Numbered from the stretch's first letter, positions 25,457 to 44,316 are shown. The stretch is 64,000 bases of DNA from an uncultured Myxococcales bacterium (GCA_903850505.1 CAINLT010000126.1:22534-86533), one strand, 5' to 3'. The notes: a model not told the origin generated them from the letters alone. Numbers and translations are program-made.

Positions 25457-25626
25457 GCGCACTCCAAGGGCCCATTTGGGCAATAAGACGCTACCTTGCA
25501 CGCCGCGTCTGGTCAATTCGTTCCGGCGTTTTGCCGGGGAACCCGTCGTCAACTCGCGCGCGCCGTCATCCTGCGGTACGCTTGCGGCCCAACGCGTGCC
25601 CGCGCGTGCGCTCGCAGGATATTGGC

Positions 25627-27117
25627 TTGGCTGTCACGACCTCGCATTACCAGATTGTCATCATCGGCACGGATTTGGCCGGTCTCGTCTTTGGCGCGCT
25701 CTGCGCCAAGCGCGGCTATCGCGTGCTCGTCATCGGCCAGGGCAGCCAGGGCGTGCTGTACGAGCACCAGGGCTACACGATGTGCCGGCGCATTGAGATG
25801 CCCCACGGCCTGTCCAGCCCGCCGATCAAGCGCGTGTTTGACGAGCTGAGCCTTGGCCTGGAGCTGCGCAATCTGCCCAAGCCCCTCGATCCGGCGTTCC
25901 AGGTCGTGCTGCCCAAGGCGCGCATCAACGTCTCCACCAACGCCAAGCTGTTCGAGCGCGAGCTCAAGCGCGAATTTCCCGGCGTGGAAGACGAGATCAG
26001 CTACTTCTTCAAGCGCGTGGCGGAGATCGACGCCGACGTCGAGGAAGTGCTGAAGCTGCGGCCCAATCTGCCGCCGACCGGCGTCGTCGAGACGTTCCAG
26101 TTCCGCCGTCTGGTCAAGCGCTTTCCGTTCCTGGACGACGAGTGGGCCATCGAGGATCCGCTCATCCGGTTTGTCCACGGCCACCCGTTCCGCGCCTTCA
26201 TGAACGCGCCGTTCCGCTTCACTTCCGGCATGCTGCCCGCGCGGCCGTATCCCGCGACGTTCGTGCGCGCGGTGACCGAGCTGTGCAAAGGCACGGCGTC
26301 GTTTGACCACGGTCCCAACGCGCTGCGGCAGATGTTCCTTGGCCTGATCGGCGCCGCGGGCGATTTCAAGCCCAAGGACATGGTCGCGCAGATCGACATC
26401 AGCCGCGGCAAGGCGACGAGCGTGACGCTGCGCGATCGGCGCCAGGTCATCGGCTGCGATCTGCTGGTCTGCAACATGGATCCCAAGCGGTTCTTCCAGC
26501 TGATTCCGCAGGAGCAGCAGAACGAGGAATTCCACCACCAGATTCATACGCTGCAGCCGGTCTACTACACGCTGGTCGGCAATTTTGTGGTGCGGGCGCG
26601 CGCGATCCCCGAGGCGATGGCCAAGCACGTGTTTGCGATCAGCGATCCGTCCCAGCCGCTGGAAGAAGACAATTGCATCCACATGGCGCGCGACATCGAT
26701 ACGGCCGCGGGCACGGACGATCGCGAAGTCCGGCTGATCACAGCGGCGATGCGCGTGCCGATCCATGCGACGTCAGGTGGCGCGCGATCGGCGACGGCGC
26801 TGCTGGACAAGCTGCAGCGGCGGGTCGAGGAGACGATTCCGTTCCTGTCCGAGCACCTGCTCGCGCGGCACACGCCGTGGCTGAAGGAGGATGACGGCGA
26901 CGAGGACATTGACCCGACCGAGCTGCAGCCATGCTACGGCGAGGCGATTCCGCACACGCTGGGAACGAGCCCGGTGGCGACGACGACCGGCTACCGGAAT
27001 ATCCTGGTGGGCGGCGACGCTTCTTTCTGCGGCCTCGGCCATGACGGCCCGTACGTTGCGGCGCTCAACCTGTTTGCCCAAGCGACCGATCGCGTGCCGC
27101 TCAAGTCGGGATTCTGA
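25627..27117 (+). CDS. FAD/NAD(P)-binding oxidoreductase (phytoene-desaturase/amine-oxidase-like)
   Basis: ORF 25531..27117(+). The Rossmann motif HYQIVIIGTDLAGL sits right after a candidate TTG start at 25627. The ATG at 25531 would add an Arg-rich 32-aa extension and lie only about 75 nt from the divergent gene. Confidence 0.7.
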   Translation: MAVTTSHYQIVIIGTDLAGLVFGALCAKRGYRVLVIGQGSQGVLYEHQGYTMCRRIEMPHGLSSPPIKRVFDELSLGLELRNLPKPLDPAFQVVLPKARINVSTNAKLFERELKREFPGVEDEISYFFKRVAEIDADVEEVLKLRPNLPPTGVVETFQFRRLVKRFPFLDDEWAIEDPLIRFVHGHPFRAFMNAPFRFTSGMLPARPYPATFVRAVTELCKGTASFDHGPNALRQMFLGLIGAAGDFKPKDMVAQIDISRGKATSVTLRDRRQVIGCDLLVCNMDPKRFFQLIPQEQQNEEFHHQIHTLQPVYYTLVGNFVVRARAIPEAMAKHVFAISDPSQPLEEDNCIHMARDIDTAAGTDDREVRLITAAMRVPIHATSGGARSATALLDKLQRRVEETIPFLSEHLLARHTPWLKEDDGDEDIDPTELQPCYGEAIPHTLGTSPVATTTGYRNILVGGDASFCGLGHDGPYVAALNLFAQATDRVPLKSGF

Positions 27118-27120
27118 ACC

Positions 27121-28551
27121 ATGCGCATGTTGCTGCTGCTTTTGTTGTTTGTTGCCGTGCCGGCGTCGGCGCAGGTCGTGCCGTCGTTGCTGCCCGCTGA
27201 GGTCAGCGCGACCGCGGATGGCCAGCAAGTGCTGCGCTGCACGTATGAGCAGTGCGTCAAGCGCGCACTGGATCGTTCGCCGCTCATTGCTGCCGCAGGC
27301 AAGAGCCTGGAACTGTACGAAGCGATGCAGCGCGAGGCCAAGTCGACGCAGTATCCCAAGCTGGAGTTCACGGGCTTTGGCGCGGCGATTCCCAGCCTGA
27401 CGCCCGGTACGACCGGCGCGTACTTCACCGACTACGATCTGGGCGGCACATGGAAGCCGCTGCTTCTCGGACAGGCGTCCCTCGTGCAGCCGATTTGGAC
27501 TTTTGGCAAGATTGCCGCGCTCAAGCGATTGGCGGCGGAAGGCATCGAGATCGGCCAAGCCACCAACCGGATCGCCGCCGACGAAATGCGCTACCAGATC
27601 GCCCGCGCGTGGTGGGGGCTGGTCGTCGTGTCGCAGATGGATGACATGATCCGCGACGGCAAGAAGCGCTTTCTGGAGGAGAAAGATCGCCAGGAGCGGA
27701 TGCGGGACACCGCCGATGACAAGTTCAATCAGAATGACTTGATGAAAATCAACATCTATTACGCGGACTTTGAGGACAAGATCCGACAGGCCGAGCGCAG
27801 CAAGCAGCAGGCCCTGGACGGTCTGCGCATGGCGATGGCGGAGTCGACTGAAGTCGAAGTGGTGGCGGACACCGTCGGGTTCAAGCCGCTGGAGTTCCCC
27901 ACGCTGCCCGTCGCGGCATACGAGGCGCTGGCGCTGGCCAATGCCCCAAAACTGCTGGCCTATCGCCATGGCGTCGCGGCGCGCGTGGAGCAGGTCTCGC
28001 TGGCGAGGAACAACACGTTGCCGGACATCGGCCTCGTCGCCAAGGTCGCGGGGACCTACGCGCCGTCGCAAAACGGCGCGGTGACGACCGGATCGCTCGG
28101 CGCCATTCCCGGCAGCGGCGTGGATTTTGGCGGCGGCCTTGCCCTGCGCTGGAGTCTCGATATCGGCCGGCTGCTCGCGCAGATCGACCAAGCCAAGGTG
28201 CAGGCCGATCAGGCGCAACTGGCCGAGCAGGGTGAACGCGAGAAGACGCGGATGGACGTCCGGCAGCTGTACCGGGAGATGATCGACTGGCGCGCGATGG
28301 TCGACGTGCACGAAAAAGCCAAGACGTCAGCGCAAGGCTGGCTGAACGCGACGATGCAGACCTACGACGACGGTTTTGAGAGCGATTACAATGAGGTCCT
28401 GCGGGCGATCGAGGCGTACTACCGGCGGCGGCTGACGTGGCTGGATGCGGTGTACAACTACAACGTCGCGGTGGCGGCGCTGTCGCGCGCGGTGGGCATG
28501 GATGTGACGCAGGTGAAGCAGCCGCCGATCCTCTGCGAGCCGGCGAAGTGA
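27121..28551 (+). CDS. TolC-family outer-membrane efflux protein
   Basis: Signal MRMLLLLLLFVAVPASA. Two-repeat helical/beta architecture typical of OEP/TolC. Confidence 0.8.
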   Translation: MRMLLLLLLFVAVPASAQVVPSLLPAEVSATADGQQVLRCTYEQCVKRALDRSPLIAAAGKSLELYEAMQREAKSTQYPKLEFTGFGAAIPSLTPGTTGAYFTDYDLGGTWKPLLLGQASLVQPIWTFGKIAALKRLAAEGIEIGQATNRIAADEMRYQIARAWWGLVVVSQMDDMIRDGKKRFLEEKDRQERMRDTADDKFNQNDLMKINIYYADFEDKIRQAERSKQQALDGLRMAMAESTEVEVVADTVGFKPLEFPTLPVAAYEALALANAPKLLAYRHGVAARVEQVSLARNNTLPDIGLVAKVAGTYAPSQNGAVTTGSLGAIPGSGVDFGGGLALRWSLDIGRLLAQIDQAKVQADQAQLAEQGEREKTRMDVRQLYREMIDWRAMVDVHEKAKTSAQGWLNATMQTYDDGFESDYNEVLRAIEAYYRRRLTWLDAVYNYNVAVAALSRAVGMDVTQVKQPPILCEPAK

Positions 28552-28608
28552 ATGATCGCGACGCTCAGGCGTTGTAGCAACATGGCGCCGGAGCGCCGGA
28601 AGACGAAC

Positions 28609-29310
28609 ATGATGAACGGCAAGACAGTGCAAGCGATGTTTCTGGCGGTTTCCCTGCTCGCCACGCCGGCGTTCGCCAAGGCCAAGAAGCCCAAGGTGCC
28701 CGCGCCTGCGCCCGCCGCCGCGCCATCGCGCGAGGAACTGAAGGCCGTGCCGCCGGACCGCGGTCACACCCAGCCGGAAGCCAAGCCGACGCTGGCGCCG
28801 CAGAAGTTTGTGGAGAGCCTGTATGGGCGCATGAACGCGCTGAGCAAGGAGTCGCCGACGCTGGACGCGCTGCACGCGAAGATCGGCGAAGAGCTCAAGA
28901 CGGTCGTCGACTATCCCGAGATGGCGCGGCTGGCGCTGGGGCAGAAGTGGACGGAGATCGATGACGCGCAGAAGTCGGAGTTTCTCGGCTACCTGACGCG
29001 CATGGTGCAGAACACGTATGTGAAGCGGTTCAAGCCGGGGCAGGCGATCGACATTCAGTACGGTGCGGCGCCCAAGCAGTTGCCGGACGACCGCGTGCAG
29101 GTCACCAGCACGATCACGGTTGGCAAGACGAGCGCGGAAGTCCAGTACGCGCTGCGGCCGTTGCAGGGGAAGTGGGTGGTCTACGACATCGTCGTCGACG
29201 AGGCGAGCCAAGTGCAGACGTACCGCCGGTCGTTCAAGAATATTCTGGACAAGGAAGGCTGGCCGGGGCTGATGACGCGCATGAAGAAAGCTGCTGAGAA
29301 GAAGGTGTGA
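28609..29310 (+). CDS. MlaC/Ttg2D-family phospholipid-binding periplasmic protein
   Basis: ORF 28552..29310(+). Start MMNGKTVQAMFLAVSLLATPAFA. Body YLTRMVQNTYVKRF...YALRPLQGKWVVYDIVVDEASQVQTYRRSF matches the Tgt2/MlaC family. Confidence 0.7.
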   Translation: MMNGKTVQAMFLAVSLLATPAFAKAKKPKVPAPAPAAAPSREELKAVPPDRGHTQPEAKPTLAPQKFVESLYGRMNALSKESPTLDALHAKIGEELKTVVDYPEMARLALGQKWTEIDDAQKSEFLGYLTRMVQNTYVKRFKPGQAIDIQYGAAPKQLPDDRVQVTSTITVGKTSAEVQYALRPLQGKWVVYDIVVDEASQVQTYRRSFKNILDKEGWPGLMTRMKKAAEKKV

Positions 29311-30191
29311 CCCAGTATTTCGCGCCTGTCGCGCTGCTGACAATTTGGCTCCTGTGCTGCGGTTTTGGCCCGTATCGGCCACCCGGCGCGGGGGCTTTTT
29401 CCCTGGGTCAGGGCGACGCGGTCGTGGCCACGGGCGTCGGCACCGTCGCGCTCTACGCCAACCCGGCCAACATGGCGATGGTCAAGCGTCAGACCGTCGA
29501 CTTCGGCGGCACGCGCAATCCGGAGGCCGGCGCCTCGTCACTCAGCGTCGGCGGCGTCGACGGCACCTCCAGCTGGGGCCTGACCGCCGGCCTTGGCTAC
29601 AGCTACGACGTCAATTGGGGCATCGACGCCCCGCAGCGCGGCCTCCACGACTTGCGTTTCGGCCTCGCCGCCGCCGCGGAATCAGACGCAGGCCGCGTGA
29701 TGATCGGCGCTTCCGGGCGGTACATGACGGGCGACGTGATGAAGACCGGCCAGCACCTGGAAGGCTTCGGCACTGACATCGGCGTGGGCGCCGCACTTTC
29801 GGGTCTTCGCGCGGGTCTCGTGCTGCGCAACGCCGTGCGGGTGGACGAGGTCGAGACGCCGCGACGCGCTGCCGCCGGCGTCGGCTGGATCAACGAGCAC
29901 GTCCTTGTCGACGGCGACGCGGCGTGGGGACTCGACAGCAATTCCGGCCAGGCGTACCGCTTTGGCGTTGGCGTCCAACCCGGCGACGAGGGCTTCCAGG
30001 TCCGCGGCGGCTACGCGTACGACAAGACCGTGCCCCTCGATCCCACGCGGCATTTCGTGTCGCTCGGCGTTTCCTGGCGCGTCCCGACCTTCTCGCTTGA
30101 CTTGAGCGCCGCCGTGAACGTCGTGCGCCCGTCGGAGACCATCATCGCGCTGGGCGTCGGCTTCGTTCTTCCGGCCGCTGAAGACAACTGA
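29307..30191 (+). CDS. hypothetical Gly-rich outer-membrane-type protein
   Basis: Overlaps the MlaC stop (GTGTGA). Alternating Gly/hydrophobic beta-strand-like pattern. The start and signal are uncertain. Confidence 0.45.
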   Translation: MTQYFAPVALLTIWLLCCGFGPYRPPGAGAFSLGQGDAVVATGVGTVALYANPANMAMVKRQTVDFGGTRNPEAGASSLSVGGVDGTSSWGLTAGLGYSYDVNWGIDAPQRGLHDLRFGLAAAAESDAGRVMIGASGRYMTGDVMKTGQHLEGFGTDIGVGAALSGLRAGLVLRNAVRVDEVETPRRAAAGVGWINEHVLVDGDAAWGLDSNSGQAYRFGVGVQPGDEGFQVRGGYAYDKTVPLDPTRHFVSLGVSWRVPTFSLDLSAAVNVVRPSETIIALGVGFVLPAAEDN

Positions 30192-30198
30192 CCTGACG

Positions 30199-32559
30199 TC
30201 AGTCGCCGCGCTTCCATTCGCCCGGCTGCGTCGGCGCTTCCCACAGCTCTTCCAGGATTTGCGCGGGATTGCCCACCTCATCCAGCGCCGTTGGCCCCTC
30301 GTCGCCGCCGTGATCATCTTCCCATTCGCCGGCAAGCCGCGCGGCTTCCGTCTTCTTCGCTGCCTGTGCGCGGTCCCGGGCGATTTCCTTCTTGGACTTG
30401 CCCTTGGCCAGCTCGCGGGCGCGCGTGTTGCTGTGGAAAGTCAGCCAAATCAGGAAGTGAATCGGGTGAAAGTGGTCCAGCACGCCATCCCACGGCTCGC
30501 CCAGCACGCCAATGTGCTTGGCGACGTCCTGCGTCAGCCAGACAAACGGCAGTTGCCGGGCGATTTGCCGCGAGAACAGCGCATCGCGCATTGCGCCGTC
30601 GGCCTCCAGCAGATCACGCAGCTGCTTGGCCTTGTCGTCCCAGTTCTGCGCGCTCGCCAGCAGCTTCAGCCAATCCACCTGATCGGACCATTCTGACACA
30701 TGCCGCGTAATCGCCAGCCGCAGCCGGTCGCGCAGCTCCGGATCGTCGGGCTCGCGATAGAACGTCTCGATGTCGTCGGGCCGCACGCGCCGCCCCGCGC
30801 GCAGGAACGTCGGGTCCGGCTTGGCGGGCTTGCGGTCCACTGTCGGCAGCACCTGCCGCAGCAGGCTCTCGGAATCGACAACCAGGTTGTCGTCGTTGTC
30901 CGCTTCCACGTCGTACCAGAAGCGGCCGTGCACGCCCAAAAGATCCACGATGTTGCGCCATTGGCTGTTGGCAAAAATCTCCAGGTGCAGCACCGGCTCC
31001 AGGTCGTCCTCGTCGCCCGTCTCGCCCACGCGCCCGATCACCGTGCCCGCCGCCACGCGCCGCGCCGTCGGGCCGTCCACTGGCAACAGCGCCACTTCAC
31101 CGCGCCGCAGCGCGTCGATTCCCTCGCCGATCGCCGGCAGCAGCGGTTGCTCCTTCTTTGGCGCGTCGTCGTCGTCCTCGTCGCTTTCGCCTGCTTTGGG
31201 CGCCTTCTTCGGCTTGGCCGCCGCCGCTTCGCCTTCGCCTTCCTTGCCAGTCACGACCTGCTTGGCCAGCGTCAGCCACTCGGGCGCCGTTGCCTCATCC
31301 GCGCGCTTCTGGCCCTTCTTCTCGGCATCAGAAGCGTCCCGCTCGGGGTCAAAATGCAGGAGGTGCATGTACAGCGAGTAGAACACGAAGCGGCGTTCAT
31401 CCTTGGGATCGCCAAACAGCACTTCATGGCGCAGCAGCACAAAGTTGGCGCTTCCCAGCGGACCCGGCTCGGCGTTCCGCGCCGCCACTACGATGCCATC
31501 GGTCATCGCCCGCACTTCGGTCCCGCGCGCCGGAAACAGGTGCACACCGCCATGCCACTGGCCGCTCAGCCCGATCGGATAGTAGCCGCCCTTGCCCGCC
31601 AACTCCGTGTGCTGGAAATAGACCCGCGCAGCCGCCTCGACCTCCGCGTCGCCTTGCAGCCCCGCCAGCTCGACTTCCTTCTTGCTCTTGGGATCGGTCA
31701 GCGCGATCGGAAAGTGGTTGGTCTCTTCCGTCAGGCCGTAGATCAGCCGGTGCCAGTCAAAGCCCGGCCCCGGATCGAACTTCTCCGCCGTCAGGTGCAG
31801 GTGGCCGTACAGCCCAATGTCCGGGTTGTACTTCTCCACGACCGACCAAATCGGCGCGTTGTCCTCCGCCAGCGGCGCCATCAGCTTGAGCTTGGGCAGC
31901 AGGGACGCGAGCTTCTTGAGCAGCGCAATCAGCGCGCGGTACTGCGCATCCGTGTAGCCCCAACTCTGCCACGGCACGGTGTTGATCTCGATCGTCTCGG
32001 ACATCCGCCGCTCGCCCTGTGAACCGGCCGCGGGCGGCTTGCCTCCAGCGTGGTTGACCTGCAGGCAATTGACGTCGATCCCAATGGAGAAGTTGTTGAC
32101 GTTCTTGCGGAAATCCGGACTCGCGGCGTGAATCGCCATGCGCGCCACGTCCGTGCCCTGGTAGATTGTGCCGTCCCAGTCGATCATGAAATGCGTGGAA
32201 AAGCCGCGCATCTTGAGGATCTGGAAGCACGATCGCGAGTCGCTGGTGATGTCGCTGTGCAGCACCACCATGTCCACGACTTCCTGCGCATCCGGCAGCG
32301 ACTGGACTTCACGCCGCGTTTCGCCTTCCACGTGGCGCGTTTCGACGTACTTGCCCGGTCGCGTCGGTGGCTCGCCCAGCCGGGAGAAATCCCATTCCGG
32401 GTCGTCCAGGAACGTCACGACGCACTGGCCTTCCAGCTCAATCCGCTGCCCGGCCACGACAATCGTGCCGTGCGCCTTGGGATTGCGGCAATCGCTGGCC
32501 AGCGGGGCGGTCAGCGCGCCCGGCGGCGTCTCCAGCTTGGGATCGAGCATCTGCGCCAC
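30199..32559 (-). CDS. multidomain peptidoglycan hydrolase without signal peptide: Amidase_2 (PGRP/T7-lysozyme-like) + LytM/M23 domain split by an ~88-aa acidic/lysine-rich insertion + ~250-aa C-terminal domain
   Basis: Amidase_2: VVLHSDITSDSRSC...RGFSTHFMIDWDGTIYQG...AIHAAS...NFSIGIDVNC. M23 first half: WHGGVHLF...GIVVAA...FVLLRHE...YSLYMHL. M23 second half: GTVIGRVGETG...PVLHLEIF. These two halves are separated by KKGQKRADE...ESDEDDDDAPKKE. No N-terminal signal or TM segment. Confidence 0.75.
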   Translation of the reverse strand: MAQMLDPKLETPPGALTAPLASDCRNPKAHGTIVVAGQRIELEGQCVVTFLDDPEWDFSRLGEPPTRPGKYVETRHVEGETRREVQSLPDAQEVVDMVVLHSDITSDSRSCFQILKMRGFSTHFMIDWDGTIYQGTDVARMAIHAASPDFRKNVNNFSIGIDVNCLQVNHAGGKPPAAGSQGERRMSETIEINTVPWQSWGYTDAQYRALIALLKKLASLLPKLKLMAPLAEDNAPIWSVVEKYNPDIGLYGHLHLTAEKFDPGPGFDWHRLIYGLTEETNHFPIALTDPKSKKEVELAGLQGDAEVEAAARVYFQHTELAGKGGYYPIGLSGQWHGGVHLFPARGTEVRAMTDGIVVAARNAEPGPLGSANFVLLRHEVLFGDPKDERRFVFYSLYMHLLHFDPERDASDAEKKGQKRADEATAPEWLTLAKQVVTGKEGEGEAAAAKPKKAPKAGESDEDDDDAPKKEQPLLPAIGEGIDALRRGEVALLPVDGPTARRVAAGTVIGRVGETGDEDDLEPVLHLEIFANSQWRNIVDLLGVHGRFWYDVEADNDDNLVVDSESLLRQVLPTVDRKPAKPDPTFLRAGRRVRPDDIETFYREPDDPELRDRLRLAITRHVSEWSDQVDWLKLLASAQNWDDKAKQLRDLLEADGAMRDALFSRQIARQLPFVWLTQDVAKHIGVLGEPWDGVLDHFHPIHFLIWLTFHSNTRARELAKGKSKKEIARDRAQAAKKTEAARLAGEWEDDHGGDEGPTALDEVGNPAQILEELWEAPTQPGEWKRGD

Positions 32560-32562
32560 GGC

Positions 32563-34293
32563 TCAGGGCCCCTTCGCCGCGGGCTTGCGCAGCCGCCGCA
32601 GCAGTTTCAGGCCAATCAGCGCGACAAGGCCCAGCGCCATGATGCTGCCGACGATCGCGAGCACCCAACACAGCACCAGATAGGTCCGGTAGCCCAGCAC
32701 ATCCTGCAGTTGCGCGATCTTGCCGCGGACCGCCCGCTCCAGCAGCGCGCTGCGGGTCGGCGCGGGTGCAATCGCCACTTGCCGCGCGGCTGAGCGCAGC
32801 TTCGTCCGCGCGTCGCCGATGTGTCCGTCCGCCAAGCGCACCTTCACGCGCGCCTGCGCCGGGTCGACTTCCACTTCGAGCGCGAGGCTCAGCGCGGCGG
32901 GCCGATCCGCGCCATCCTCCTGGACTTGCTGGAAATCGAGCACGAGTTGGCCCGAGAGTTCGGCCATCGTCCCCAGCACTTCCTGGCCGATCGTATCCTC
33001 GGTCGCCGCCAGCCGCCACGTGCCGCCCGAGCGCTCCGCCAACAGGCGCAGCCGGTCCAACTCAAAATCCCGGCCGATCGCGCCCAGACCGACCGCGAAA
33101 ACGCGAATGCCCGCGGCGCGCAGCACGCCGAGCCAGTGTGTGGCGCGGGCCTTGAACTCCGCCTGCGACGCCGCGACGCGCTGGTCGAGGAAGGCGCCGA
33201 TGCAGGTCTTGAGCTGTTGCTTGTCCGTGATCCCCTGGCAATTCTTGGGCGGGTGCGCCTCGCACAGTTCCAGCTCGCGGAAGTAGCCGTCGCGGCCATC
33301 GCTCACCAGCACGATGACCGGCTCTTCGCCTGGCCGCGCGTCCAGCAGCAGCGTGGCGATCGCTTCGTCAAACGCGGATGTCGCAAACGCCAAGGGCTTG
33401 CCCGCGCTGGCGTCGCGATCGCGGGCCTCCTGTTGGCGGCTGGCGTTCCCGGCCTCAAACAGACCGAATCCCTCCAATTCTTCCGGCGGCGGCGCGCAGT
33501 AGCGCTTGACGTCATAGAACGGCGCGCCCAGCGCGAAGAGCCGGGGAAAATGACCCTTGAACGTCGCGGCCTTGACCTGCGCGCCGACGCGCTTGGCGTC
33601 GTCCTGCAGACCGCAAAGCCACGTTCCGGGCGGCGGCAGCGGATTGTCCTTGTTGTTGGCCTCGCCCGCGCTCAGCGACAGCTCCACGCCCGCGCGCGCC
33701 TCCGCCAGCGCCGTTTGGCACAATTCCTGGCGGCTCTCCACGTCGTCCAGTGCCCCCGTGTGGCCCTTGAGCGCATGGGCGCGATACAGCCGGTCGCCAT
33801 ACCACAGCGCGTTGACACGGTCGCCCGCCGCGAATTGCTTCCATCCGGCGCTGAGCGCGTCGCGCAGCCGCGGCCCCAACGTGCCGCTCCGCAGCGATTC
33901 GTGCTGATAGCCGGAAATCACGACCATCGCCGCCAGTGGCACCCCCGCCTTGTCGCGGGTCTGCAGCTTCGCGTCTTTCTGCGCTTCGTCCGGCTTGCCC
34001 TGGCGAAACAGCACCAGCGGCGCGGCGGACGGCTTCTTCGCATCGACGACCGCCAGCTTCTTGAGCGCCTTTGGCGGAATCGGTCGGCCCGTCGCGTCCA
34101 GCACGGTGGCCAGCACCCGCAGCTTGGGCCACTGGCTTGCGTCGATCGCGTCGATCCGCGCTTGCGGCAGCTCCACCTGCGGGATGGCTGGGGCGTCAGT
34201 CGGCGGCGCTGGCTCGGCCGCCGTCAGCAGTCGCAACGGCGCAATGATCAGCAGCAGGAGGGCCAACGGCGCGTGCAGGGCAGCGTGTTTCAT
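32563..34293 (-). CDS. von Willebrand factor A (VWA) domain protein with N-terminal signal peptide and C-terminal TM anchor
   Basis: Signal MKHAALHAPLALLLLIIAPLRLLTAA. VWA motifs VIVLVSDGRDG and IRVFAVGLG. C-terminal TM YLVLCWVLAIVGSIMALGLVALIGL followed by an RR-rich tail. Lies 3 nt upstream of the hydrolase gene. Confidence 0.75.
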   Translation of the reverse strand: MKHAALHAPLALLLLIIAPLRLLTAAEPAPPTDAPAIPQVELPQARIDAIDASQWPKLRVLATVLDATGRPIPPKALKKLAVVDAKKPSAAPLVLFRQGKPDEAQKDAKLQTRDKAGVPLAAMVVISGYQHESLRSGTLGPRLRDALSAGWKQFAAGDRVNALWYGDRLYRAHALKGHTGALDDVESRQELCQTALAEARAGVELSLSAGEANNKDNPLPPPGTWLCGLQDDAKRVGAQVKAATFKGHFPRLFALGAPFYDVKRYCAPPPEELEGFGLFEAGNASRQQEARDRDASAGKPLAFATSAFDEAIATLLLDARPGEEPVIVLVSDGRDGYFRELELCEAHPPKNCQGITDKQQLKTCIGAFLDQRVAASQAEFKARATHWLGVLRAAGIRVFAVGLGAIGRDFELDRLRLLAERSGGTWRLAATEDTIGQEVLGTMAELSGQLVLDFQQVQEDGADRPAALSLALEVEVDPAQARVKVRLADGHIGDARTKLRSAARQVAIAPAPTRSALLERAVRGKIAQLQDVLGYRTYLVLCWVLAIVGSIMALGLVALIGLKLLRRLRKPAAKGP

Positions 34294-34718
34294 GCGCTGA
34301 ACCGGAAGCGGCGGATCGCATAGCTGCCGGCGTCGTGGCGATCCAGCAGGCGGCCGCGACCGTCGCGCAACGTGAGCTGTACGTCGTACGTGCCGGCGAC
34401 CAGATCGGCGTACGGATAGGGCGTCACAAGCGCCAGTTCCTGGCCGGCGGACACGGGCTGTTCAGCGTGGCGGGACGCGATCTGGCTGCCGTCCGGGCGC
34501 CGGTGTCGCAGCTCGATCGCCAGTGAGGCACCCACGGGCACGTGCGCGGCCAGACGCACCAGCAGGTGCGCACCGGGCGCGGCGGCTTCACCGTCGATTT
34601 CCCAGCCGGATAGCCCGCGCCACGGGAGCACCGCGGCGATCGTAGAGACGGTAATGCACTGCAGGAAGGCGCGCCGACGCATGACCGGCAATGTACAGCG
34701 TGAATGCGCCGCTGTCAC
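34290..34718 (-). CDS. small secreted protein with Tat-like signal (RRRAFL)
   Basis: MTAAHSRCTLPVMRRRAFLQCITVSTIAAVLPW. An alternative start is at the internal ATG (~34682). The stop overlaps the VWA gene start (ATGA). Confidence 0.5.
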   Translation of the reverse strand: MTAAHSRCTLPVMRRRAFLQCITVSTIAAVLPWRGLSGWEIDGEAAAPGAHLLVRLAAHVPVGASLAIELRHRRPDGSQIASRHAEQPVSAGQELALVTPYPYADLVAGTYDVQLTLRDGRGRLLDRHDAGSYAIRRFRFSA

Positions 34719-34724
34719 GGTCGG

Positions 34725-35303
34725 TCAGTCGAACGTCCAGCCGATGCCGGCAAAGCCCATGACGCCGAAGTAGCTGAAGTTGTACATGGCGCGCAACCCG
34801 AGGTTCAGCAGGGTGTGCGGGCGATCGGCCGTGCTCGTCTGAAAGCGGATGCCGGCCTCGCCTGTGAAGGCCAGGGTCTCGGCCAGGTGCGTATCCGCCC
34901 AAATCGCCAGCACGCCGACCTCGGCGTAACCGCGCCAAGCATCCCAGGCGTTGTTGGCTGACTCCAGGCCGACCGCGCCGCCGCCCGCCAACCACGGATG
35001 CGCGGGAAAATCGCCCGCCGGCAACGTCGCGCCCAGCTCTGCTTCGAGCGCCATGTAGAAGTGCCGCATGTGTCTGCGGGCAGTGCCGCGAACCGCTAGC
35101 ACGTTGGCGCGCTGCACGTTGGGTTCGCAGGTCTTGCTCGGCACGTCAGTGCAGTAGACCGGCGCGCGCGTGTCGATGTCCATGGGCGATAGGCCAAAGC
35201 CGACGGAGATCTCACGCTCGGCGACGTCGTTGCGGTCGTAGTCCCGGGCGAGCGCCGGTTGGGCGACGAGGAAAACGGCAATCAGGGGGATCCAGCGCTG
35301 CAT
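34725..35303 (-). CDS. hypothetical secreted / outer-membrane protein
   Basis: ORF 34725..35462(-). Internal ATG gives the signal MQRWIPLIAVFLVAQPALA. C-terminal F/W-rich end (GIGWTFD) is OMP-like. Confidence 0.5.
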   Translation of the reverse strand: MQRWIPLIAVFLVAQPALARDYDRNDVAEREISVGFGLSPMDIDTRAPVYCTDVPSKTCEPNVQRANVLAVRGTARRHMRHFYMALEAELGATLPAGDFPAHPWLAGGGAVGLESANNAWDAWRGYAEVGVLAIWADTHLAETLAFTGEAGIRFQTSTADRPHTLLNLGLRAMYNFSYFGVMGFAGIGWTFD

Positions 35304-36762: not shown

Positions 36763-36974
36763 GTTCTTGGCGAAGGCTACTTGTTTCTGAAATGTGTCTA
36801 TAACGCGATGCGTCACTCTCCATGTACCGGACCGATTGGCTCGGCGCAAGGGTGAACTTGCGTTCGTTGCAGGAAAGTTGACGATCGGGGTGGAGGGCAA
36901 TGGAAGGCAACGTCGACCGGCAGGAACCACACCAGACACACGCCGCGGGGGATCAACGCGGCGCGTGCACTGGC

Positions 36975-38309
36975 ATGTCGGCCAAGGCCTTGGGGTCTTC
37001 GGGCGATCGCGGCCTGCCTGGGCCGGGCTTTCTTGGGGGAGGGTCTGGACCCGACCCAGGCAGTCGCAATCTATCTGCCCCTCAAACGCGACGTGGGGAG
37101 GAACATCGCGGCGGGCACACAGCTACAACGCACCACCCGCGGCATCTATTTCCGGTCGTGGCGCTGTGCGTCGCATTTTTTTTCACCGGCTGCCATGTCG
37201 CTGAAGTGCCGCCATTTTTTGCCAACGAGGACGCGACAATCGACAGCAGCGACGCATTCACCTGGGGCGACGATGCCTGGCGGGTGACCCTGCCGTCGGT
37301 CCAGGCCACGACCTCGTCCATCGGCTGGAGCGAAGCGGTGGCGTTCACCGTACCTGAGGGCACCACGGCCCTCCAGATCCAGCTTACCTCGCCGACTGGG
37401 CACGTGTTGCAGCTCGCTGAACTCGTCGCGCCGGATGCCGCCATCGTGCCCGGCGATTGGCTCAAGTTCGCCGATCAGCCATGGCTGTACCTCGGTGGCC
37501 AGGAGCGCGTGCGTGCGTCCGCGTGGCAAGCGGCTTTCCTTGTTCCGAACGCGCCGCAAATCGCCGTGACGCCCGGCGCGTGGCGGCTGCGCACTTTTGC
37601 CTTTGACTACGACCCGCAGACGGAGGCGCGTCAGCCGACGGCGACGACGCTGGACGTGCAAATTGACCTGCTGCACAAGCCGGACATCGCGGCGGGGACG
37701 ATCGACCTGAACCTGTGCCTGACCGGCGCGCGCGGGATTACGGCGGCGACGGCGCCCGACCATCCGCGCGTGCGCGACGCGCTGCAGGTGGTGGAGCAGG
37801 CGTGGGGGCCGGCGGGCATTCACGTGGGAACCGTGCGCTACTTTGACGTGCCGGCCAAAGCGCTGAGCGTGACGCACGACGACGGCGCGGATAGCCAACT
37901 CGCGGCGTTGTTGCGGCTGACGGCGGGCCAGCCGCCGGGCCTGCCGATCTTCCTGCTGGAATCGGTCGATCTGCAGACGGGCAGCGGCTTGGTGCCGGCG
38001 GCTGGCTTCACCGCGGGGCTGCCGACGCCGTTCGCCATGGGCGGGCCGCGGACGGGGATCGCCCTGGCGCTGAAATACGACGCGCCGGATATCCTCGGCG
38101 TGGTCATGGCCCACGAGATCGGACATTGCCTCGGTCTGTTCCACGTCGTGGAGGCCCATGCCCAGGGCGAGACGGCGATTGAAGATCGCCTGCCGGATAC
38201 CGCGCCGACGCCGGACAACCTGATGTACTACGCGCCTGACCCGGCGCGCCTCCAGCTGACAGCCCAGCAAGCCGCGGTGGCGCTGGGCGGACCGTGGGTG
38301 AAGCCATGA
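36975..38309 (+). CDS. metzincin-type zinc metalloprotease lipoprotein
   Basis: HEIGHCLGLFH (HExxHxxGxxH) plus Met-turn NLMYY. Lipobox FFFTGC. The start is uncertain: an ATG at about 36975 leaves a Gly-rich 60-aa leader, and a GTG at about 37158 gives only a 12-aa signal. Confidence 0.65.
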   Translation: MSAKALGSSGDRGLPGPGFLGGGSGPDPGSRNLSAPQTRRGEEHRGGHTATTHHPRHLFPVVALCVAFFFTGCHVAEVPPFFANEDATIDSSDAFTWGDDAWRVTLPSVQATTSSIGWSEAVAFTVPEGTTALQIQLTSPTGHVLQLAELVAPDAAIVPGDWLKFADQPWLYLGGQERVRASAWQAAFLVPNAPQIAVTPGAWRLRTFAFDYDPQTEARQPTATTLDVQIDLLHKPDIAAGTIDLNLCLTGARGITAATAPDHPRVRDALQVVEQAWGPAGIHVGTVRYFDVPAKALSVTHDDGADSQLAALLRLTAGQPPGLPIFLLESVDLQTGSGLVPAAGFTAGLPTPFAMGGPRTGIALALKYDAPDILGVVMAHEIGHCLGLFHVVEAHAQGETAIEDRLPDTAPTPDNLMYYAPDPARLQLTAQQAAVALGGPWVKP

Positions 38310-41673: not shown

Positions 41674-44316
41674 GTGAGGCCCGCAGTGATCGCCGATTGT
41701 CCCAGTTCCACGCCGTTCTTCGGCCGTGTGATCGTTCCCGCTCTGCTCTTTTGCCTCGCGGCCGCCGGTTGCAGCGATGCTCCGACCGCGAGCGGTGAGG
41801 CGTTGGATGCCGCCAATGGCGTTGGCGACGACCTGTTTGCCGCGTTCCCGGACGCCAAGGACGTTGCCGCCGCCGATTTCCTCGCCTCGGACGCGGCCGC
41901 CGATGCGTCGCAGTTGAGCGCCGATGGCACAAGCACCTGCGCTGCCACCGGCGCGGCGTGGTGCCCGTGCAAGGAAAACGCGGACTGCGACGGCGGCCTC
42001 TGCATCGACACGCCCAACGGCCATATCTGCGCCGCCAAATGCTTTGACCTGTGCCCCGAGGGCTTTGCCTGCGCGGGCGTGAACACGGGCGGCGGCGACA
42101 TCTCCACCATCTGCGTGCCCAAATGGGGCTGGCTCTGCGATCCGTGCAGCACCAACGCGGATTGCGACAGTCCGGGCGTTGGCAAGCAGGCCGCGTGCCT
42201 CGACTACGGCAATGCGGGCCATTTCTGCGGCGTGGACTGCACAAGCGCGGCCGATTGCCCCATGGGCTACGTCTGCGGCGAAGGCAAAACCGTCGACGGC
42301 GCAACCCGCAAGCAGTGCTGGCATGGCGCCGACGTGGGCGCGGCGGCCAGCGCGTGCGGCTGCTCGCCGCGCGCGACGGTCATGGAACTGACGACAGCGT
42401 GCTGGGTGGCCGATGCCACGAGCGGCGCGACCTGCGGCGGCTTGCGGCATTGCACCGACAAGGGCCTGGAGCCGTGCAGCGGCAAGCCCGGCAAGGAAGT
42501 TTGCAACGGCAAGGATGACGACTGCGACGGCCAGACCGACAACGCCGCGTGCGACGATCAGAACGCGTGCACGCAGGACCTGTGCGACGCGATCGCCGGC
42601 ACATGCACGCACAACGTGCTGGACGGTTCGCCGTGCAACGCCGACAACACGGAATGCACCGCCAACGACACCTGCCAGAGCGGCGTGTGCAAGCCCGGCG
42701 CGGCCAAGACGTGCAGCGACGGCAACCCGTGCACGGACGACACGTGCGACCCGAGCGGCGGCTGCGTCTTCGCCAACAACTCCGCGGGCTGCGACGACGG
42801 CAAAATCTGCACGACGGGCGACTATTGCGCGGGCGGCGTCTGCAATGCCGGCAAGAGCAACAACTGCGACGACGGCAATAGCTGCACCGACCAGACGTGC
42901 GATCCCAAGACGGGAAACTGCAACACGACGTTCAACGCGCTCAACTGCGACGACGGCAACGCCTGCAGCAGCAACGACGCGTGCAAGGACGGCGTCTGCA
43001 AGGCGGGCGTGACCGTGGACTGCAAGGACGCCGATTTGTGCACGCTGGATTCCTGCGACGTGGCAGGTGGCTGCAAGCACACGATCAGCACCGGCGTTTG
43101 CGATGACGGCGATGCCTGCACGTACGGCGAAACGTGCACCACCGGCGTGTGCAACGGCGGCGCGCAGCTGAATTGCGACGACCTGAATCCGTGCACCGCG
43201 GATTCCTGCGACAAGCTGATCGGCTGCGCCCACACGCCGCAAAATGGCGCGTGCAACGACGGCAACGCCTGCACGGACAGCGACGTCTGCTCCGGCGGCG
43301 CGTGCGTGGGCGCGCAAAGCCCGCCGTGCGCCAGCGACCAGAACTTGTGCACCGACGACGTGTGCGATCCGACGCTGGGCTGCGTGCACACCAACAACGC
43401 CTTGCCATGCACCGATGGCAGCGTCTGTACGCAAACGGACACGTGCTCCGGCGGCCTGTGCGTGGGCGGCGCGCCGCTCAATTGCGCCGACGACGGCAAT
43501 CCGTGCACAACGGAATCGTGCAATCCGGTCAGCGGCTGCGCGTCGATCAACAACTCCGCCAGCTGCGACGACGGCGATGCGTGCACGCTGAACGACGTCT
43601 GCTCCGGCGGAACCTGCAAGTCCGGCGCGGCCAAGGATTGCACTTCGCTCAACACCACCTGCGGCGACGGCAAGTGCAGCCTGGGCAGCTGCTACATGGC
43701 TCCGTACCCCATCAAGACCGCGTGTCCGACGGGCTTGTGCGATGGCTTGGGCACCTGTGAGGCGCAGACCGCACAGACGATTGACGGCTGCACCAAGGAG
43801 CCGACGGTCGACTATTTCCAGGACTGCAAGACGTGGGCCTGCTACGGCTGCGCGCTGGAGAATGGCTTCTCCGCCTACAACATCACGGATTGCGCCGGCA
43901 CGGGGTGCTTCAACCGTTTCCCGACGTTTGGCGTCAACGGCATGATCGTGATGTGGGCGGACTGGGAACAGAGCGCGTACGTCGACTGGAAGTTTCCCAA
44001 GCCGCTGATCGGCAACTACAAGATTGAGGCGGCCATTCCGCCGGGCATTCCGGCCAGCTCCGGGACGTGCACGCCGGCGCAGGCGACTTACAACACTGCG
44101 GCGAAGTATCACTTCCTGACGGCGAGCGGGGAGCTGATTGCCCCGGTGGTCAAGAACCACAGCACGACCAAGAACACCAAAGTCACGCTCTTCAGCGGCG
44201 ATGCGACCGGCCTGACCGGCATCCGGCTGTACAACGGCCCGTCGGCCAGCGGCACGCAGCCGCCCGCGTGCGAGTTCTACTTGGTTGACGCCGTGTACGC
44301 GACGCCGCAGCCATGA
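41674..44316 (+). CDS. large cysteine-rich tandem-repeat lipoprotein (myxobacterial Cys-rich repeat type) with ~230-aa non-repeat C-terminal domain
   Basis: GTG start. Lipobox LFCLAAAGC. D/A-rich linker. At least 13 copies of roughly 38-40-aa C-x-D-G-N-x-C-T-x-D-x-C-D-x-x-x-G-C repeats. Opposite-strand ORF 41650..44160 is rejected as an artefact. Confidence 0.8.
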   Translation: MRPAVIADCPSSTPFFGRVIVPALLFCLAAAGCSDAPTASGEALDAANGVGDDLFAAFPDAKDVAAADFLASDAAADASQLSADGTSTCAATGAAWCPCKENADCDGGLCIDTPNGHICAAKCFDLCPEGFACAGVNTGGGDISTICVPKWGWLCDPCSTNADCDSPGVGKQAACLDYGNAGHFCGVDCTSAADCPMGYVCGEGKTVDGATRKQCWHGADVGAAASACGCSPRATVMELTTACWVADATSGATCGGLRHCTDKGLEPCSGKPGKEVCNGKDDDCDGQTDNAACDDQNACTQDLCDAIAGTCTHNVLDGSPCNADNTECTANDTCQSGVCKPGAAKTCSDGNPCTDDTCDPSGGCVFANNSAGCDDGKICTTGDYCAGGVCNAGKSNNCDDGNSCTDQTCDPKTGNCNTTFNALNCDDGNACSSNDACKDGVCKAGVTVDCKDADLCTLDSCDVAGGCKHTISTGVCDDGDACTYGETCTTGVCNGGAQLNCDDLNPCTADSCDKLIGCAHTPQNGACNDGNACTDSDVCSGGACVGAQSPPCASDQNLCTDDVCDPTLGCVHTNNALPCTDGSVCTQTDTCSGGLCVGGAPLNCADDGNPCTTESCNPVSGCASINNSASCDDGDACTLNDVCSGGTCKSGAAKDCTSLNTTCGDGKCSLGSCYMAPYPIKTACPTGLCDGLGTCEAQTAQTIDGCTKEPTVDYFQDCKTWACYGCALENGFSAYNITDCAGTGCFNRFPTFGVNGMIVMWADWEQSAYVDWKFPKPLIGNYKIEAAIPPGIPASSGTCTPAQATYNTAAKYHFLTASGELIAPVVKNHSTTKNTKVTLFSGDATGLTGIRLYNGPSASGTQPPACEFYLVDAVYATPQP

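Follow-up and report, generated by a model that had tools for sequence, protein, structure and literature searches.

We analysed a window of 64,000 nt of DNA from an uncultured Myxococcales bacterium (GCA_903850505.1, CAINLT010000126.1:22534-86533) and here describe a peptidoglycan hydrolase without a signal peptide and the genes that accompany it. At positions 30199-35303, on the minus strand, four tightly coupled genes run in one direction downstream of amt (Pfam Ammonium_transp, E 5e-117). They encode a 192-aa secreted protein (34725-35303), which has a signal peptide and starts MQRWIPLIAVFLVAQPALA, a small 142-aa protein with a twin-arginine translocation (Tat) signal (34290-34718), a 576-aa membrane protein with a VWA fold (32563-34293) and the 786-aa hydrolase (30199-32559, stop codon at 30199-30201). 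Reading the junctions from the sequence, we found that the stop of the 142-aa gene overlaps the start of the 576-aa gene as ATGA, and that the 576-aa gene ends in TGA and is followed after 3 nt, or one codon, by the GTG start of the 786-aa gene. A first-pass annotation of the region had described the same four co-directional genes with these junctions, and the open reading frames (ORFs) and the sequence bear it out. It had also taken all four genes as one module, which was too many: the core is three genes, and the 192-aa gene, like amt, is common only to close relatives with at least 80% identity to the window.

The 786-aa protein is made up of an Amidase_2 domain, a split M23 domain and a C-terminal domain without a library match, and its AlphaFold model has a predicted template modelling score of 0.72. 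The two enzyme domains had been called before, and Pfam agrees, with 51.5 bits for Amidase_2 (PF01510, aa 94-223, cutoff 26) and 36.2 bits for Peptidase_M23 (two stretches, cutoff 28.7). The amidase domain spans aa 94-276 (31732-32280), and its AmpD/PGRP/T7-lysozyme fold was confirmed. For residue conservation we relied on an alignment of 37 sequences with 32-90% identity, in which H101, H253 and D262, the putative zinc ligands, never vary. K260, the counterpart of K162 in AmpD, is mostly conserved, with an arginine in some relatives. The catalytic glutamate of AmpD (E116, in SIGIE) corresponds to D162 (SIGID) here; the aspartate is invariant across the family and is a conservative variant. 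The best sequence and Foldseek structure matches of this domain are AmpD, and the score against the AmpD equivalog (NCBIfam NF008758) is below threshold, at 48.9 bits versus a cutoff of 143. Pfam found no PG_binding_1 domain in the hydrolase.

The M23/LytM domain comes in two halves, aa 325-404 (31348-31587), which includes the Pfam stretch 336-379 and aligns with lysostaphin, and aa 477-532 (30964-31131), which aligns with the ...PHLHF end of lysostaphin. Its motifs are WHGGVH at 335-340, YSLYMHL at 394-400, GTVIGRVGETG at 505 and VLHLEIF at 523; the M23 fold was found as well. The domain had been described as split by a charged insertion of about 88 aa, and both the split and the kind of insertion are right. 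That size was approximate, as the halves are 104 aa apart and about 72 aa of this (405-476, 31132-31347) is the insertion, which we delimited by composition, by the predicted local distance difference test (pLDDT) and by its variable length. It is 43% K/R/D/E and has a conserved helix around the invariant W428, followed by a disordered acidic and lysine-rich loop at 438-471 (pLDDT <50). In relatives its length varies from about 60 to 150 residues, and the span from YMHL to HxE from 89 to 178 aa.

The zinc site of the M23 domain is unusual. Where the canonical motif is HxxxD, the hydrolase has H336-G-G-V-H340, and in place of HxH it has L523-H-L-E, where the first histidine is replaced by L, V or I and the second, H525, is kept. 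The YxHL motif with the catalytic histidine is present as Y397-M-H399-L400. No variation is seen at W335, H336, G338 and Y397-M-H399-L400, and conservation is at least 90% at H340, H525 and E527, so that the family site reads HxxxH ... H ... (L/V)xH, compared with the canonical HxxxD ... H ... HxH. It retains one catalytic histidine out of two, along with three residues that could bind metal. The first-pass annotation had read these motifs correctly as HGGVH and LHL and had suggested a degenerate domain like that of EnvC or NlpD. Since the metal-site residues are conserved across the family and only the first His of HxH is lost, the site is a conserved, family-wide variant and not a decayed one as in EnvC/NlpD. 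Both the amidase and the M23 domain may be catalytically active.

Two parts of the hydrolase were not in the earlier description, namely a C-terminal domain of about 130 aa and a conserved C-terminal tail. The domain, whose function is unknown, was recognised by residue conservation at aa ~590-720 (30400-30792) and has the motifs HVSEWSDQVDW, LPFVWL and FHPIHFLxW. S-E-W, V628, W630, W640, P671, W674-L675, H698-P699 and W705 are invariant, and H620, S625-D626, L670 and F697 are at least 90% conserved. We found no match to it in Pfam, NCBIfam, PHROGs or solved structures. In the model, H620, E623, D626 and H698, which are invariant or nearly so, lie on or next to two adjacent predicted strands, and they could form a third metal or catalytic site. 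Beyond this domain and a Lys/Glu-rich helix, the protein ends in ...LWEAPTQPGEWKRGD; the extreme tail ILEELWEAPTQPGEWKRGD (aa 768-786, 30202-30258) has an invariant W782, and L769 is at least 90% conserved.

The hydrolase was said to have no signal peptide, and this holds for the whole family. A hydrophobicity scan found no Sec-like hydrophobic N-terminal segment in the window's hydrolase or in any of 167 full-length relatives. The ORF cannot be extended upstream to gain one, because there is a TGA in frame just upstream of the GTG. The VWA ORF is in frame with that of the hydrolase, with only this TGA and one codon between them (32557-32565). We considered a read-through fusion of the two and judged it unlikely; we treat the phasing as a coincidence because other, more distant loci do not conserve it.

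The ORF of the 142-aa protein begins with GTG at 34718, and the likely real start is an ATG at 34682, which gives MRRRAFLQ..., a Tat signal followed by a domain of about 100 aa of unknown fold. The sequence M-R-R-R-A-F-L-Q-CITVSTIAAVLPW fits the consensus (S/T)-R-R-x-F-L-K with a moderately hydrophobic stretch, and the twin-arginine motif R-R-R-A-F-L lies at 34662-34679. Fourteen sequences of the small protein align with 20-66% identity, and the only five invariant positions are the R, R and F of the Tat motif, one proline and one glycine. RRxF is thus present in 14 of 14 aligned proteins, and a small gene with RRxF[LI] lies directly upstream of the VWA gene in 18 of 18 loci of the window's clade that have flanking sequence (L028 included). 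The C-terminal end is also conserved across loci as ...Y-x-V/I-R-x-x-(F/W)-(F/S)-A, and here it is YAIRRFRFSA (34293-34322). On this evidence the 142-aa protein is predicted to be exported by Tat.

The 576-aa partner has a cleavable-type signal peptide, an N-terminal beta-sandwich, a VWA fold, six invariant cysteines, a C-terminal transmembrane helix (aa 538-565 in a hydrophobicity scan, 32599-32682; helix 535-569 in the model) and a short basic tail. The tail, RRLRKPAAKGP, would be cytoplasmic; it is 11 residues long and poorly conserved, and the conserved parts of the protein are periplasmic. Both partners had been named by the first-pass annotation as Tat and VWA proteins, and the RRxF motif and the VWA fold support these names. 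The VWA call is not backed at the level of profiles, where VWA_3 scores 15.7 bits against a cutoff of 27 and weak VWA matches appear in 10 of 22 homologues. A profile of the protein against PDB sequences gave nothing significant, so structure prediction was needed to confirm the fold. The MIDAS motif (metal ion-dependent adhesion site) DxSxS is absent, the equivalent strand reading VVISGYQ or VVVAGYQ, and the window's VWA partner has no FHA domain.

We found at least 157 full-length homologues of the hydrolase, all from Myxococcota-type assemblies, which carry generic names at most ('N-acetylmuramoyl-L-alanine amidase', AmpD). At 22 loci the VWA gene is directly upstream of the hydrolase gene wherever the flank is available, down to 35% identity. 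The three-gene core of small Tat protein, VWA protein and hydrolase, which we read as a peptidoglycan-hydrolase module specific to Myxococcota, is conserved in uncultured Myxococcota, while amt and the 192-aa gene are outside it, and so the earlier expectation of a conserved gene neighbourhood across Myxococcota holds for the three core genes. At distant loci the neighbours are instead an aldehyde dehydrogenase, a MAM-domain protein, tadA, dnaX and recR. In one locus (L002) the hydrolase is 88.7% identical, amt 86.4% and the TolC-like gene 82%, and by this comparison the hydrolase appears about as conserved as its housekeeping neighbours. Four contigs with the module (L008, L009, L010, L021) are deposited under names of metagenome-assembled genomes such as Klebsiella pneumoniae, Enterobacteriaceae and Rickettsiales; the bins were probably mislabelled.

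By a metagenome scan and a search of proteins we also found a sister clade in Haliangiales and Kofleriaceae, to which the cultured Haliangium ochraceum belongs. In at least 27 loci of this second clade (among L033-L073), the gene upstream of the hydrolase encodes a protein with a signal peptide, a periplasmic VWA domain, a membrane helix and a cytoplasmic FHA domain (for example L025:6365-7966 and L113:2450-4222; Pfam FHA and Yop-YscD_cpl). By hhalign, this protein is a homologue of the VWA protein in the window (E 2.5e-5). Its layout recalls the periplasmic-VWA kinase PpkA and Fha1 of type VI secretion system (T6SS) signalling in Pseudomonas.

The profile of the first-clade small protein found nothing in the second-clade loci. 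What we found there is a mini-ORF that overlaps or abuts the hydrolase stop codon in 33 of 37 loci with downstream sequence (L030-L073), as in the Haliangium-type contig L113 (6197-6430), where it overlaps the stop. The mini-protein is 50-95 aa long (77 aa in Haliangium ochraceum) and consists of a Tat signal (consensus PTRRAFVAMLGAAAAALA), a variable linker of 15-40 residues and an invariant C-terminal W-[ILV]-G-H-x. All six frames of 324 kb contain the terminal motif just 35 times, and we exclude chance because the occurrences are so few and nearly all are at the mini-ORF position. Gene callers would mostly miss such an ORF. No WIGH mini-ORF was found in the first-clade loci or beside the window's hydrolase. 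As far as their sequences tell, the small partners of the two clades are dissimilar and the Tat signal is the one property they share. Across two deep clades, then, a hydrolase without a signal peptide strictly co-occurs with a partner that has a Tat signal and with a VWA membrane protein.

The wider family is small. A profile of the C-terminal domain found only 133 representatives among 1.84 billion proteins, some of them with other N-terminal domains (Peptidase_C39_2, SH3_3 or unknown). All carry the WHGGxH variant of M23, and none has a signal peptide except one, P0270, seen on two independent contigs. This protein has its own Tat signal; it begins MAGLTRREFLERTAVLSAAWATA directly before the first conserved strand and ends 12 residues past the FHP motif, without the C-terminal tail. 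No partner genes are nearby on its short (3.5 kb) contigs. Elsewhere the type of tail goes with the type of partner: hydrolases with the small Tat partner of the window's clade, which is about 130 aa long, end in ...LWExPxxPGEWxR, those with the mini-protein in ...LxELIxGF/Y, and relatives linked to injection systems have neither type.

Such links are seen at a few loci. In the second clade, three hydrolase genes out of about 40 loci have T6SS genes (hcp, tssE, tssF, tssG) no more than a few kb away (L030:3317-7095, L034:3917-4318, L060:343-4484); one of these hydrolases, P0218, is just upstream of hcp-tssE-tssF-tssG. P0212, a distant low-GC relative without a signal peptide (L023:1536-4377; Peptidase_C39_2, variant M23 and C-terminal domain), is directly upstream of a Phage_base_V spike gene and preceded by a secreted protein with a NADase_transloc domain, which suggests a contractile-injection-system context. 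These T6SS- and spike-adjacent relatives suggest that the wider family has links to secretion systems. Another relative (L027:7952-12304, GCA_016710535.1) has an unknown N-terminal domain, the variant M23, the C-terminal domain and an extra C-terminal extension of about 130 aa. It follows two proteins of 538 aa and 135 aa without signal peptides, and the three genes are inserted between leuS-lptE-holA and nadD-rsfS-rlmH-maf-rng-yhdP. We tried the 135-aa and 538-aa proteins as homologues of the Myxococcota small and VWA proteins and rejected them (hhalign probability <1%); judging from its genes, this lineage appears to use other partners.

The first-pass annotation had suggested export by a route other than Sec, and given the signal-less family and its Tat partners this is the best-supported reading of the module. 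Specifically, we propose that the folded hydrolase is exported by Tat by 'hitchhiking' on the small protein and works with the VWA anchor, and we give this an even chance of being right. Tat hitchhiking of subunits without a signal is established for HybOC, DmsAB and the 135-kDa PaoABC (PMC10924467, PMC4273604). According to Bernhardt & de Boer 2003, as cited in PMC6708511, the wall amidases AmiA and AmiC of E. coli are Tat substrates, and Myxococcus xanthus has a Tat system (PMC13323110). As expected of a hitchhiker, the signal is on one subunit only and the partners are encoded together. That a Tat signal is kept in both of two dissimilar partners speaks for a requirement for Tat as such. 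The VWA partner is placed in the periplasm by its signal peptide, cysteines and anchor, and a functional link with it therefore needs the hydrolase to be in the periplasm too.

In this proposal, the hydrolase would fold and take up zinc in the cytoplasm and then bind the small Tat protein, with the conserved C-terminal ends of the two as the probable contact; we infer from this conservation that the hydrolase tail may be the docking element. The twin-arginine translocase would next move the small protein through the inner membrane with the hydrolase as its passenger. Once in the periplasm, the hydrolase may work with the inner-membrane-anchored VWA protein, which could anchor, position or restrain it, and cut the wall of the producing cell itself. 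It might also leave the cell afterwards, and in the sister clade Ser/Thr phosphorylation could be coupled to export or activity by way of the FHA domain. The physical binding of the hydrolase to the small protein, the Tat-dependent co-export and the role of the VWA protein are all predictions from gene content and conservation. A fuller version of the proposal, possible but on balance slightly doubtful, has a separate, dedicated Tat escort exporting a zinc-loaded bifunctional hydrolase, with the Haliangium escort reduced to a signal, a linker and a WIGHx docking motif, with the VWA(-FHA) protein as a two-sided checkpoint, and with the family maybe recruited from hydrolases of contractile injection systems. 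It would be reasonable to place the family's origin among signal-less hydrolases with ties to injection systems, with its recruitment for export by Tat taking place in Myxococcota.

Several observations weigh against hitchhiking. The small protein has no clear AxA cleavage site, and in the window's clade the small gene and the hydrolase gene are not adjacent, as the VWA gene lies between them. The cytoplasmic FHA domain of the second-clade VWA partner hints at a cytoplasmic interaction that hitchhiking does not require. The hydrolase with its own Tat signal is a single lineage, and the correlation between tail and partner is confounded by phylogeny. Finally, the three second-clade loci near T6SS genes and the distant relative beside a baseplate spike gene tie the wider family to secretion systems.

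A rival explanation is delivery of the hydrolase as an effector to neighbour or prey cells by a contact-dependent machine such as a T6SS, with the C-terminal domain as a loading or targeting domain and the small Tat and VWA proteins as immunity proteins, one for each catalytic domain. A wall hydrolase without a signal next to a small periplasmic protein is the classic effector-immunity layout, known from the Tae/Tai pairs of the T6SS and the X-Tfe/X-Tfi pairs of Xanthomonas. That one domain follows a variable set of hydrolase domains is reminiscent of domains for secretion targeting; an overlap with the hydrolase stop, as seen for the second-clade mini-ORF, is frequent among immunity genes; and P0218, L034 and L060 are near T6SS genes and P0212 is beside a Phage_base_V spike gene. 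However, we found no T6SS or spike genes (hcp, vgrG, PAAR, tss) in the 64-kb window or within +/-10 kb in the 22 first-clade loci (L001-L022), there are T6SS genes at just 3 of about 40 second-clade loci, and Pfam shows no known effector marker domains in the window's hydrolase. The hydrolase evolves slowly, sits in housekeeping neighbourhoods and keeps its synteny, unlike patchy, fast-evolving toxin islands. Immunity gives no reason for two unrelated partners to have Tat rather than Sec signals, and P0270, with its own Tat signal, would poison its producer. A 576-aa membrane-anchored VWA protein, with FHA in the sister clade, is unlike known immunity proteins, and the mature mini-protein would have only 20-40 residues. 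The effector or toxin role that had been suggested for this protein is therefore the weaker option for the window's clade, and we consider it unlikely, though the links of the wider family remain a point in its favour.

Two further explanations would keep the hydrolase in the cytoplasm, at least at first. One is a role in AmpD-like recycling of imported muropeptides or as a CwlM-like regulator that controls wall synthesis by sensing fragments or precursors of the wall, read out through FHA in the sister clade, which we think decidedly unlikely. The family has no signal peptide, the amidase domain has its best matches, both in sequence and in structure, to the cytoplasmic AmpD, and at least 27 second-clade loci have a partner with a cytoplasmic FHA domain; mycobacteria offer a precedent in CwlM, a cytoplasmic amidase homologue that PknB phosphorylates and that binds FhaA, an FHA protein (PMC4946905, PMC6180346). 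But a cytoplasmic role leaves the Tat-signal partners of both clades and the Tat signal of P0270 unexplained, the window's VWA protein has little in the cytoplasm beyond 11 poorly conserved residues while its conserved parts are periplasmic, and the AmpD equivalog score of 48.9 is far from the cutoff of 143. An M23 endopeptidase for cross-links also has no obvious cytoplasmic substrate, and the catalytic residues are conserved in both domains, unlike in a pure regulator. The other explanation is a latent autolysin, with the small Tat protein as an inhibitor or pro-peptide in trans whose C-terminal end plugs the zinc site (the His and terminal carboxylate of WIGHx, or the RFRFSA end in the window), and with the wall reached by another route, by membrane damage or in programmed lysis. 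The extreme C-termini are, besides RRxF, the most conserved parts of both partner types, as this would predict. Yet an inhibitor exported by Tat would never meet a target left in the cytoplasm, and we found no holin or lysis cassette and no phage context, so we regard it as highly improbable. Inhibition as such is compatible with hitchhiking, as carrier and inhibitor could be one protein. The lysis function that the first-pass annotation had listed falls on the same lack of a holin and a phage context. A phage origin as an endolysin was likewise rejected, as no viral contig carries the C-terminal domain and PHROGs gave only generic amidase matches, and so was a defence system, for which PADLOC returned nothing.

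If we compare the module with known systems, the closest for export by hitchhiking are HybO-HybC, DmsAB and PaoABC, where, as here, a small subunit has the sole Tat signal and large, signal-less, metal-containing subunits are encoded beside it. The complex proposed here would be well within the known capacity of Tat (PaoABC, 135 kDa; PMC4273604). The known hitchhikers differ in that they are redox enzymes whose signal subunit is a cofactor-binding catalytic one, whereas here the passenger would be a zinc wall hydrolase and the carrier has no recognisable cofactor; the sister-clade carrier has little beyond a signal peptide, a linker and a five-residue motif. AmiA and AmiC are N-acetylmuramoyl-L-alanine amidases that would share the Tat route, and they are periplasmic and controlled by LytM-domain proteins. 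They are Amidase_3 enzymes with their own Tat signals and separate, metal-free LytM activators (EnvC, NlpD), while our hydrolase has Amidase_2, a fused M23 domain with a metal site, and its signal on another polypeptide.

AmpD, AmpDh2 and AmiD have the same fold and the zinc ligands H, H and D as well as the Lys, but our amidase differs by the Asp for Glu, a domain insertion of about 40 aa, an N-terminal beta extension and 500 further residues. From the M23/LytM endopeptidases (lysostaphin, LytM, ShyA, Csd1-3) and the degenerate LytM factors (EnvC, NlpD, DipM, SpoIIQ), the family differs in its variant motifs, present in all members, and in a charged insertion of 70-150 aa within the domain; EnvC and NlpD lose the metal ligands where the hydrolase keeps its metal-site residues, and EnvC-type proteins act on Amidase_3 enzymes, which have an autoinhibitory helix, instead of Amidase_2. 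Effectors of the T6SS (Tae-Tai) and the type IV secretion system (X-Tfe with XVIPCD) resemble the hydrolase in having no signal, a variable N-terminal enzyme with a common C-terminal domain, and a small periplasmic neighbour. They differ from it in the Tat signals, the housekeeping-like behaviour and the absence of a secretion-system gene near the locus or the 22 closest loci, and in Pfam the hydrolase has no sequence match to XVIPCD or to MIX/FIX-type markers. CwlM-FhaA is alike in pairing a signal-less amidase homologue with an FHA partner (in the sister clade only), but CwlM has PG_binding_1 domains and lacks both M23 and the C-terminal domain, FhaA is a soluble protein of its own, and the Tat partner has no counterpart there.

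The operon ends with the hydrolase because a convergent gene ends at 30191. On the plus strand at 25531-30191 there are genes for a FAD/NAD-binding oxidoreductase, a TolC-like OEP, an MlaC-domain protein and a 294-aa beta-barrel-like protein, and conservation of this set is restricted to close relatives. The 192-aa protein had no family match in profile searches, and neither it nor the 294-aa protein is related to a 350-aa protein encoded downstream in Haliangium. A 469-aa ORF (36900-38309, plus strand) has no match in Pfam but a zinc-metalloprotease-like motif, HEIGHCLGLFH. At its 5' end it overlaps the amt ORF where that ORF is extended 5', and it too is seen in close relatives only. Further along (41674-44316, plus strand) is an 880-aa protein with Dicty_CTDC repeats, which are Dictyostelium-type and Cys-rich (E 8e-18), and in L019 the MAM-domain protein encoded upstream of the module also has a weak Dicty_CTDC match.

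The earlier statement that this is not a described system still stands, as the libraries and literature searched gave neither a name nor a paper for it, nor a curated family for its C-terminal domain. Its parts (Amidase_2, M23, VWA and the Tat signal) are known; the module, the variant M23 site, the C-terminal domain and the Tat escort are absent from those libraries and that literature. The module defines an M23 variant (HxxxH ... H ... xxH) and a new domain of about 130 aa. For annotation, a missing signal peptide does not mean a cytoplasmic location where a mini-ORF with a Tat signal is adjacent, and such mini-ORFs are easily missed. If our proposal is true, Tat hitchhiking would extend from respiratory redox enzymes to cell-wall hydrolases, and this would be the first hitchhiker that is a wall hydrolase and not a redox enzyme, as well as the first escort acting as a 'signal peptide in trans'. 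A natural trans-acting Tat escort would also matter for Tat proofreading and for the engineered export of folded proteins. The module is present in the cultured and sequenced Haliangium ochraceum and hence is directly testable. For the Myxococcota, it would be a widespread and uncharacterised autolysin system in bacteria noted for predation, development and programmed lysis.

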